From the NCBI RefSeq assembly GCF_003334815.1, contig NZ_QOWO01000041.1: DNA of 33,046 nucleotides. One strand, given 5' to 3'. Below the pieces are notes generated by a model. It had not been told where the DNA came from, searched no databases, and worked only from the letters and a program-made list of their open reading frames with translations. A program made the translations under genes and the position numbers. Shown piece after piece: positions 651-1,733 of the stretch (position 1 is the first letter of the stretch; every line of letters starts with the position of its first letter). The stretch is from Escherichia coli (lineage in GTDB: Bacteria; Pseudomonadota; Gammaproteobacteria; Enterobacterales; Enterobacteriaceae).

Positions 651-1733
651 ATGAAAAAATTAACAGTGGCAATTTCTGCTGTAGCTGCATCAGTACTGAT
701 GGCGATGTCTGCTCAGGCAGCTGAAATTTATAATAAAGACAGTAACAAGCTGGATCTGTACGGGAAAGTTAATGCTAAGCACTACTTCTCCTCTAATGAT
801 GCAGATGATGGTGATACTACTTATGCCCGTCTTGGCTTCAAAGGTGAAACCCAAATCAACGATCAACTGACTGGTTTCGGTCAGTGGGAATATGAATTCA
901 AAGGCAACCGCGCTGAATCTCAAGGTTCCTCCAAAGATAAAACCCGTCTTGCCTTCGCTGGCCTGAAATTCGGTGACTACGGCTCCATCGATTATGGCCG
1001 TAACTACGGTGTAGCATACGATATTGGTGCATGGACCGACGTTCTGCCAGAATTCGGTGGCGATACCTGGACCCAAACAGATGTATTCATGACTGGTCGC
1101 ACCACAGGTGTTGCAACTTATCGTAACAATGACTTCTTTGGTCTGGTTGATGGTCTGAACTTTGCTGCTCAGTATCAGGGTAAAAATGACCGCACTGACG
1201 TAACTGAAGCTAATGGTGATGGTTTCGGTTTCTCCACTACTTATGAGTATGAAGGATTCGGTGTAGGTGCAACCTATGCTAAATCTGACCGCACTAATAA
1301 TCAGGTTATCTACGGTAACAACAGCCTGAATGCATCTGGTCAAAATGCTGAAGTATGGGCAGCTGGTCTGAAATATGATGCGAACAACATCTATCTGGCT
1401 ACCACCTATTCTGAAACCCAGAACATGACTGTTTTTGGTAATAACCATATTGCCAACAAAGCACAAAACTTCGAAGTAGTTGCACAATATCAGTTCGACT
1501 TCGGTCTGCGTCCGTCCGTTGCTTACCTGCAATCTAAAGGAAAAGACTTGGGTGCGTGGGGTGATCAGGACCTGGTTGAATATATTGATGTAGGTGCAAC
1601 CTATTACTTCAACAAAAATATGTCCACTTTTGTTGATTACAAAATCAACCTGATTGATAAGAGCGATTTCACGAAAGCATCTGGCGTTGCTACCGATGAT
1701 ATCGTTGCTGTAGGTATGGTTTACCAGTTCTAA
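651..1733 (+). CDS. Phage-encoded OmpC-family outer membrane porin (Lc/NmpC-like), 360 aa precursor
   Basis: ORF 591-1733 trimmed to ATG at 651 ([23 protein letters not shown] signal peptide with AQA-AE cleavage motif). Gly/Tyr/Asp-rich beta-barrel composition and C-terminal VGMVYQF ending in Phe. Opposite strand to Q, as for nmpC in DLP12. Confidence 0.9.

Follow-up and report, generated by a model that had tools for sequence, protein, structure and literature searches.

An intact NmpC/Lc-type porin gene with an ipeX-like 3' UTR in a cryptic lambdoid prophage remnant of Escherichia coli

Organization of the porin locus

The DNA analysed here is a stretch of 33,046 nucleotides from an Escherichia coli contig (NZ_QOWO01000041.1, assembly GCF_003334815.1), to which we refer as the window. 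Near its start, on the plus strand, is a complete general porin gene of the NmpC/Lc/OmpD type (651..1733), which encodes 360 amino acids followed by a stop codon at positions 1731–1733 and is identical to RefSeq WP_000737275.1. The start codon is the ATG at 651, in agreement with both the RefSeq annotation and homology. In the six-frame list of open reading frames the plus-strand frame extends over 591..1733, and we considered a 380-residue form beginning at the ATG at 591. This form was rejected: nothing in NmpC (365 aa), OmpD, OmpC or any solved porin corresponds to its extra 20 residues, and RefSeq places the start at 651.

A preliminary description of this DNA had proposed an intact, full-length porin of the OmpC family with a signal peptide and a C-terminal phenylalanine, and profile searches, PDB matches and alignment all agree with this. 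The protein scores 518 bits with the NCBIfam porin OmpC subfamily model (cutoff 484), with residues 8–360 aligned to profile positions 6–368 of 368; the match to PHROG 410 covers residues 1–360 of 360 (E = 1.4e-224), and Pfam PF00267 is the precomputed assignment for the porin's identical cluster. Forty-eight porins in the PDB match at E <= 1e-108 (best E = 1e-137) in full-length alignments, and nearly all of the mature solved chains start to align at query residue 24, which points to a predicted signal peptide of 23 residues (23 codons, 651..719, plus strand), in which an A-Q-A motif precedes AEIYNK. The solved porins OmpC, OmpF and PhoE of E. coli and OmpK37 of K. pneumoniae belong to the same fold family (E = 1e-137 to 1e-108), and have the PEFGG sequence, the basic pore residues and the C-terminal phenylalanine in common with the present protein.

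When the porin is aligned with NmpC, OmpD and OmpC, the last three residues of its C-terminus (...VYQF; Y358, Q359 and F360) are invariant, as are the constriction loop PEFGG (P133, E134, F135, G136 and G137) and the pore residues D130, K39, R60, R99 and R150. A C-terminal phenylalanine is a signal for outer-membrane insertion, and PEFGG in L3 is the constriction loop, in which acidic residues face a basic cluster. The counterparts of these pore residues in OmpF are K16/R42/R82/R132/D113/E117. From the identity of about 60% to solved porins, we infer that the product forms a trimeric, 16-strand beta-barrel diffusion pore.

The porin gene is antisense to and convergent with quuD (1922..2305, minus strand), a Q-type late antiterminator gene that is annotated by RefSeq on 100%-identical DNA and matches PHROG 79 ('anti-termination protein Q-like', E = 1e-52). 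Two nin-region genes located upstream of Q follow on the same strand, ylcG (2391–2531, from the RefSeq annotation) and rusA (2528–2890; NCBIfam RusA at 276.8 bits, and RefSeq). These are succeeded by a prophage deletion scar (2887..3607) that has a fragment of ybcO (DUF1364) on one side (2887–2976, minus strand) and a lambda-exonuclease fragment on the other (3158–3607, plus strand); the scar annotation is carried over from RefSeq strain 52F4, which is 100% identical over window positions 78–20000 with an offset of +14903. The end of the prophage is marked by the genes for an excisionase (5890–6108, plus strand) and an integrase (6086–7156, plus strand), and the integrase gene adjoins the chromosomal gene ybhC (7291–8574), which marks attLambda. 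The remainder of the window consists of ybhJ-mod-gal-aroG-nadA. The prophage has lost its immunity and replication genes, with no repressor, N, O or P gene, and in the 100%-identical strain 52F4 the head and tail genes are mostly fragments. The element that hosts the porin gene is a cryptic remnant of a lambdoid prophage, located at attLambda. DLP12 at its K-12 position was also considered as the host element and was rejected because the integrase gene is bordered by ybhC, beyond which come the mod and gal operons.

On the other side of the porin gene, positions 1..77 (minus strand) constitute the outside (transposase-5') end of an IS10/ISVsa5 element that is cut by the start of the window. 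An exact 23-nt IS10 terminus is present at 55–77 (minus strand), the 3' half of RNA-OUT is at 1–32 (plus strand; Rfam 35.2 bits, E = 4.7e-4, model positions 39–70, 5'-truncated), and positions 1–77 align to the end of ISVsa5 by the transposase start in NZ_CP077491. These 77 nt within the window belong to IS10/ISVsa5, of the IS4 family. The adjacent segment (78..226, minus strand) is what remains of the leader that precedes the lysis gene essD; it was recognized by alignment with K-12 and strain A14, and within it the terminator scan called a minus-strand intrinsic terminator at 224–203. The IS10 end is 573 bp upstream of the porin start, at a point that in uninterrupted relatives is 15 bp upstream of the essD start. 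The ipeX 3' UTR (see below), the cryptic attLambda remnant and the IS10 end at 1–77 were all absent from the preliminary description.

The uninterrupted relatives, whose DNA is 100% identical, have essD-rrrD-rzpD on one side of the porin gene and quuD-ylcG-rusA on the other. The porin had been described as antisense between Q and the late region, at the position of nmpC and lc. The part of this that concerns Q and the nmpC/lc position stands, with quuD on the minus strand next to the porin gene, but the late region is absent from the window, where the IS10 end is found at 1–77. The location of the gene is nevertheless that of the NmpC/Lc subgroup: the Q side is in the window, and the lysis side, interrupted here by IS10, is present in the 100%-identical relatives and in phage PhiR34_1. 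Lc (protein 2) of the lambdoid phage PA-2 is the counterpart porin at this nmpC/lc position and, with NmpC, the closest known relative.

Relationship to other porins and distribution

Calculated over all aligned columns, the porin is 90.1% identical to K-12-type NmpC/Lc, 79.5% to Salmonella OmpD and 59.6% to K-12 OmpC, and identities from MAFFT/BLAST are 91% for NmpC/Lc, 82% for OmpD and 61–64% for OmpC (61% by BLASTP). An alignment against these proteins had been suggested previously, and its outcome is an NmpC/Lc type: judged by sequence identity, the porin belongs with the NmpC/Lc/OmpD subgroup, closest to NmpC/Lc, and not with OmpC/OmpF/PhoE. Salmonella enterica OmpD shares the subgroup with an identity of about 80%, although OmpD is named as a Salmonella gene whereas the present porin is phage-associated. 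OmpD is reported to be the major Salmonella porin, with four confirmed sRNA repressors, and the E. coli nmpC mRNA is a reported target of RybB.

The closest known system is NmpC of K-12, encoded by the cryptic prophage DLP12 (qsr'), with about 90% protein identity, the same position and orientation between quuD and S-R-Rz, and a promoter region and ipeX 3' UTR that are near-identical to those of the present gene. The two differ in that IS5 interrupts K-12 nmpC 58 nt from the end of the gene, whereas the copy here is whole, as had been stated in the preliminary description; the K-12-type protein is 365 aa long compared with 360 aa; and DLP12 is located at about 565–586 kb in K-12, whereas the present prophage is at attLambda beside ybhC. 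The attachment site of DLP12 in K-12 is argU. The differences between the porin and K-12-type NmpC (365 aa) cluster at residues 182–187, 216–231 and 263–267, which are indel-rich segments in which OmpC and OmpD also differ from each other. These segments are probably surface loops, judging by homology to solved porins. Divergence of about 10% from K-12 NmpC that is clustered in loops fits selection by phages, colicins or antibodies.

Genes of this type are widespread. Of 5,426 complete E. coli genomes, 2,503 have the porin CDS over at least 80% of its length, with up to six matches per genome, and the cluster of the protein at 90% identity has 2,741 member sequences. The porin is also encoded in 42 phage records at 60–100% protein identity, with 'OmpD' as the usual annotation; those of phages PhiR34_1 and PhiR68_2 are 100% identical at the protein level, and that of the Perceval prophage is 94% identical. 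PhiR34_1, an inducible phage with K-12 MG1655 as its recorded host, has the same order as is seen here, with Q, the porin gene in antisense, S-R-Rz, and Bor. PhiR34_1, PhiR68_2, ev099, Perceval and others are, however, complete plaque-forming phages, whereas the present element lacks the immunity, the replication and most of the morphogenesis genes. An intact NmpC/Lc-type porin in this common arrangement is an already described gene, and its occurrence in one further E. coli genome contributes no new knowledge.

The earlier proposal that this is a phage-borne gene for lysogenic conversion is correct in so far as live phages carry an identical porin, but the carrier here is a cryptic remnant without immunity or replication genes. 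Because the prophage has lost these together with most of its structural genes, there is no conversion by lysogenisation; the porin gene behaves as a fixed chromosomal gene, and lysogenic conversion is historical. For annotation, the lesson is that this is a dead prophage at attLambda and not a convertible phage, and that the 'ompC' label misleads.

The label raises the question of whether the gene is simply the ordinary osmoporin OmpC, as its RefSeq product name states and as the NCBIfam 'porin OmpC' score above cutoff might suggest. The NCBIfam model describes a subfamily and is not an equivalog, so no orthology is to be read from the name, and the RefSeq product name 'ompC' is misleading. 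Identity to NmpC/Lc is about 90%, whereas only about 60% is shared with K-12 OmpC, and the gene resides within the attLambda prophage, where quuD and the essD position flank it, and not beside micF/rcsD as K-12 ompC does; locus and regulation both differ. OmpC proper was rejected on location and identity, and we regard it as scarcely credible. We also consider it very improbable that the gene is a cryptic pseudogene with an inactivating change hidden from the reading frame. The surrounding prophage is decaying, and insertion sequences have hit the porin gene elsewhere (IS5 in K-12, ISVsa5 in O111:H11, and a match in JNEC-KY204 that is in two pieces around an IS1 transposase), but here the frame is full-length, the signal peptide, PEFGG loop, pore residues and C-terminal phenylalanine are conserved together with the ribosome-binding and promoter regions, and the sequence is that of the intact allele of many genomes and viable phages, with a 2,741-member cluster. 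We found no frameshift, internal stop or IS element inside the porin frame, and positions 78–2400 match, with 100% identity, the chromosomes of many E. coli strains whose RefSeq annotation gives WP_000737275.1 as an intact CDS; the inactivating change that the preliminary description had named as counting against it was not found. It is very likely that the gene is an intact NmpC/Lc/OmpD-type porin allele, a moron of lambda-like phages positioned antisense between Q and the lysis cassette, that now resides in the cryptic attLambda remnant.

Flanking regulatory regions and expected expression

The region preceding the porin gene (227..650, plus strand) is an AT-rich putative regulatory region with homology to the K-12 PnmpC region. 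It has a GC content of 30.4%, compared with 49.5% for the whole window, which places it in the lowest 0.2% of all 424-bp windows and makes it the most AT-rich stretch of the window. Positions 78–650 share 97% identity with K-12; no difference falls within the 102 bp immediately preceding the ATG, and only two fall in the segment from -199 to -1, whose counterpart here is 452–650. The ribosome-binding region is likewise conserved with K-12. In K-12, deletion of -199..-1 removes PnmpC, the transcription start has been mapped by 5'RACE, and the promoter is a sigma-70 promoter no more than 199 bp from the ATG that is activated by CRP, repressed by OmpR, IHF and MprA, and gives detectable transcripts in hns+ cells (PMC11677980). 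The K-12 nmpC/essD intergenic region has also been described as a 'promoter island' that H-NS occupies in every ChIP-chip study compiled (PMC3661553).

Motif searches of the present sequence were less informative. A sigma-70 consensus scan gave no promoter in 227–650, and two sites in the whole 2.4 kb, both of them within quuD, compared with 7.3 expected; by eye, no -10/-35 elements could be placed convincingly upstream of the porin gene. A CRP motif scan gave a single site with two mismatches at 525–540, with a count for the window of 15 compared with 15.4 by chance. As the consensus promoter and CRP scans are empty or at the level of chance, we make the promoter call from K-12 homology only.

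Directly after the stop codon there is a structured 3' UTR of 167 nt (1734..1900, plus strand), a predicted ipeX homologue that ends in the intrinsic terminator of the porin transcript. Positions 1734–1900 have 98% identity with the intergenic region between nmpC and quuD in K-12, and are predicted to fold into four hairpins plus the terminator, with a folding energy of -61.8 kcal/mol and z = -8.25. The sole plus-strand intrinsic terminator called in the region has its stem at 1871–1888, followed by a T run. By this similarity the 3' UTR of the porin gene is assigned as the ipeX element; its boundaries, 167 nt that begin directly after the stop codon, are reportedly those of Castillo-Keller et al. 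2006. An Rfam scan of positions 1–6000 at E <= 1 gave no family on the porin 3' UTR; its sole genuine hit was RNA-OUT, and IpeX appears to lack a corresponding Rfam model. A match elsewhere to Leu_leader (5581–5638) was rejected, at 21.9 bits compared with a gathering score of 50 and with only a terminator-like hairpin matched. In the homologous system IpeX is reported to lower OmpC/OmpF, and the ipeX 3' UTR should be annotated together with the porin gene.

Several close homologues are known to be expressed. In K-12 strain NCM3722, in which nmpC is intact, NmpC accounts for about 2% of the proteome, increases under carbon limitation and is reciprocal with OmpC (PMC8144880). Shifting MC4100 from 23°C to 37°C raises its nmpC mRNA 16.5-fold, and the CFT073 copies likewise increase; in LF82 lysogens, the Perceval prophage porin is expressed as a moron, 10-fold above the local background. 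Expression of nmpC is reported to raise sensitivity to colicins and phages (PMC11677980 and a second report). By analogy, the present porin gene is probably expressed. Effects on outer-membrane permeability, and possibly on the availability of phage receptors, had been anticipated for this gene; published work on close homologues supports an effect on outer-membrane composition and on sensitivity to colicins and phages.

If the present gene works as its homologues do, a sigma-70 promoter of its own, situated no further than about 200 bp from the ATG, would drive its transcription, with activation by cAMP-CRP giving high expression under carbon limitation, with activity greater at 37°C than at 23°C, and with repression by OmpR, IHF and MprA; H-NS would bind to the AT-rich region upstream. 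The precursor would be exported by Sec and cleaved after Ala23, and BAM would insert the protein via its C-terminal phenylalanine signal to give a trimeric 16-strand diffusion pore. The transcript would carry the ipeX 3' UTR and thereby reduce synthesis of OmpC and OmpF, such that expression would exchange the set of porins and not enlarge it, with changes both in permeability and in the phages and colicins that dock at the surface. Among close homologues, an expressed NmpC-type porin can rank among the major outer-membrane proteins and, acting with ipeX, can displace OmpC/OmpF; this displacement alters the entry of nutrients and antibiotics as well as the receptors for phages and colicins.

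An alternative is that the gene is intact but quiescent in the present strain, with H-NS polymerised on 227–650 keeping it off, and H-NS-type silencing of the AT-rich 5' region had indeed been suggested in the preliminary description. The base composition of this region, at 30% GC the most AT-rich of the window, and the binding of H-NS to the homologous K-12 nmpC/essD region in all ChIP-chip data sets are consistent with such an effect. The thermal response of nmpC, with more mRNA at 37°C than at 23°C, follows the usual pattern of genes modulated by H-NS, and the intact nmpC of E. coli B is reportedly called 'quiescent' in the title of Prilipov et al. 1998, which suggests that the gene is silent in some strains. 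However, the K-12 promoter, with its two differences in -199..-1, gives transcripts in hns+ cells, NmpC is a major protein in NCM3722, and LF82 and CFT073 express their prophage copies, such that we consider quiescence unlikely. Since a near-identical K-12 promoter is active and the homologues are expressed, the silencing proposal is only partly supported: the AT-richness and H-NS binding of the K-12 region stand, modulation of the porin gene by H-NS is plausible by analogy, and silence is not expected. A different departure from the expression that we expect could arise from the IS10 itself, through pOUT read-out on the sense strand and severance of the Q-dependent late transcript, antisense to the porin gene, from essD, which would make porin/IpeX and lysis expression non-standard. 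Because RNA-OUT, which marks the outside end of IS10, is on the plus strand at 1–32, pOUT transcription points towards the porin gene, and the terminator scan called none on the plus strand from 77 to 651. In Tn10, IS10 pOUT is known to activate neighbouring genes, and the junction occurs in none of 5,426 complete genomes of E. coli. Several points nonetheless make this quite unlikely: pOUT itself is outside the window, the hairpin at 203–224 may also stop plus-strand transcripts, the porin's own strong promoter may make any extra input negligible, and late antisense transcription is probably already absent because neither pR nor the immunity region is left in the prophage. Expression from the porin's own promoter, plausibly with modulation by H-NS, is the reading that we prefer.

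The IS10 insertion and other IS hits

The strain-specific IS10 insertion is the only unusual detail of the locus. On its far side there may be either a 9-bp GACAAAGCG duplication followed by essD, as for a simple insertion, or a rearrangement. The insertion could alter porin expression in either direction. A more specific proposal is that pOUT read-out feeds the porin-ipeX unit, and that the insertion cuts the Q-dependent late antisense transcript off essD-rrrD-rzpD, to give an OmpC/OmpF balance unlike that of the standard allele; this is speculative, and we think it distinctly improbable. A related reading is that the repeated IS hits on the porin gene in different strains may reflect recurrent selection for switching the porin off or on.

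Insertion sequences at the porin locus

The left edge of the window (1–77) is the outside end of an IS10/ISVsa5 element, so that the window begins within the element; the plus strand here carries the 3′ half of RNA-OUT. Using uninterrupted relatives, we place the insertion point 15 bp upstream of the start codon of the lysis gene essD; a search of 5,426 complete E. coli genomes found the junction between IS10 and the porin locus in none of them. Insertion sequences accompany the porin gene (651–1733) in other strains as well, and the elements differ from strain to strain. The K-12 copy is interrupted by IS5 (K-12 nmpC region, L002, 2530–4826), ISVsa5 lies within the porin coding sequence of O111:H11 strain 88-19539 (L006, 3768–6188), and in JNEC-KY204 (H79) the porin match falls into two pieces with an IS1 transposase between them, judging from the layout of the match. 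This varied association may reflect recurrent selection against porin expression.

A strong intrinsic terminator (203–224, minus strand), with an 8 bp stem and a T run, separates the regulatory region of the porin from the essD position, and K-12 has it too. It could terminate the late operon unless read through by Q-modified polymerase, or it could insulate the porin moron. Downstream of quuD we looked for the late promoter pR′ and did not locate it.

Naming and start codon of the porin

The porin is approximately 90% identical to NmpC/Lc versus approximately 60% to K-12 OmpC, and its names are therefore inconsistent across databases: RefSeq/PGAP labels it 'ompC: porin OmpC', and phage records label the same porin 'OmpD'. 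An in-frame ATG at 591 would lengthen the reading frame by 20 codons (591–650), and the equivalent start is used by several database entries for a 385-residue 'outer membrane porin protein LC'; no homologue and no solved porin supports the extension.

The prophage remnant and its attachment site

The porin-carrying prophage, as seen over 2887–7156, is located at attLambda, where int adjoins ybhC, and does not occupy the position of DLP12 in K-12. Deletion has left only a remnant of it, in which a ybcO fragment abuts an exo fragment and no repressor, N, O or P gene is present. A weak match to the Rfam Leu_leader family was also recorded at 5581–5638 (21.9 bits, where the gathering score is 50); it is limited to a hairpin rich in GC and the T run that follows, and is probably just an intrinsic terminator in the int-proximal part of the prophage.
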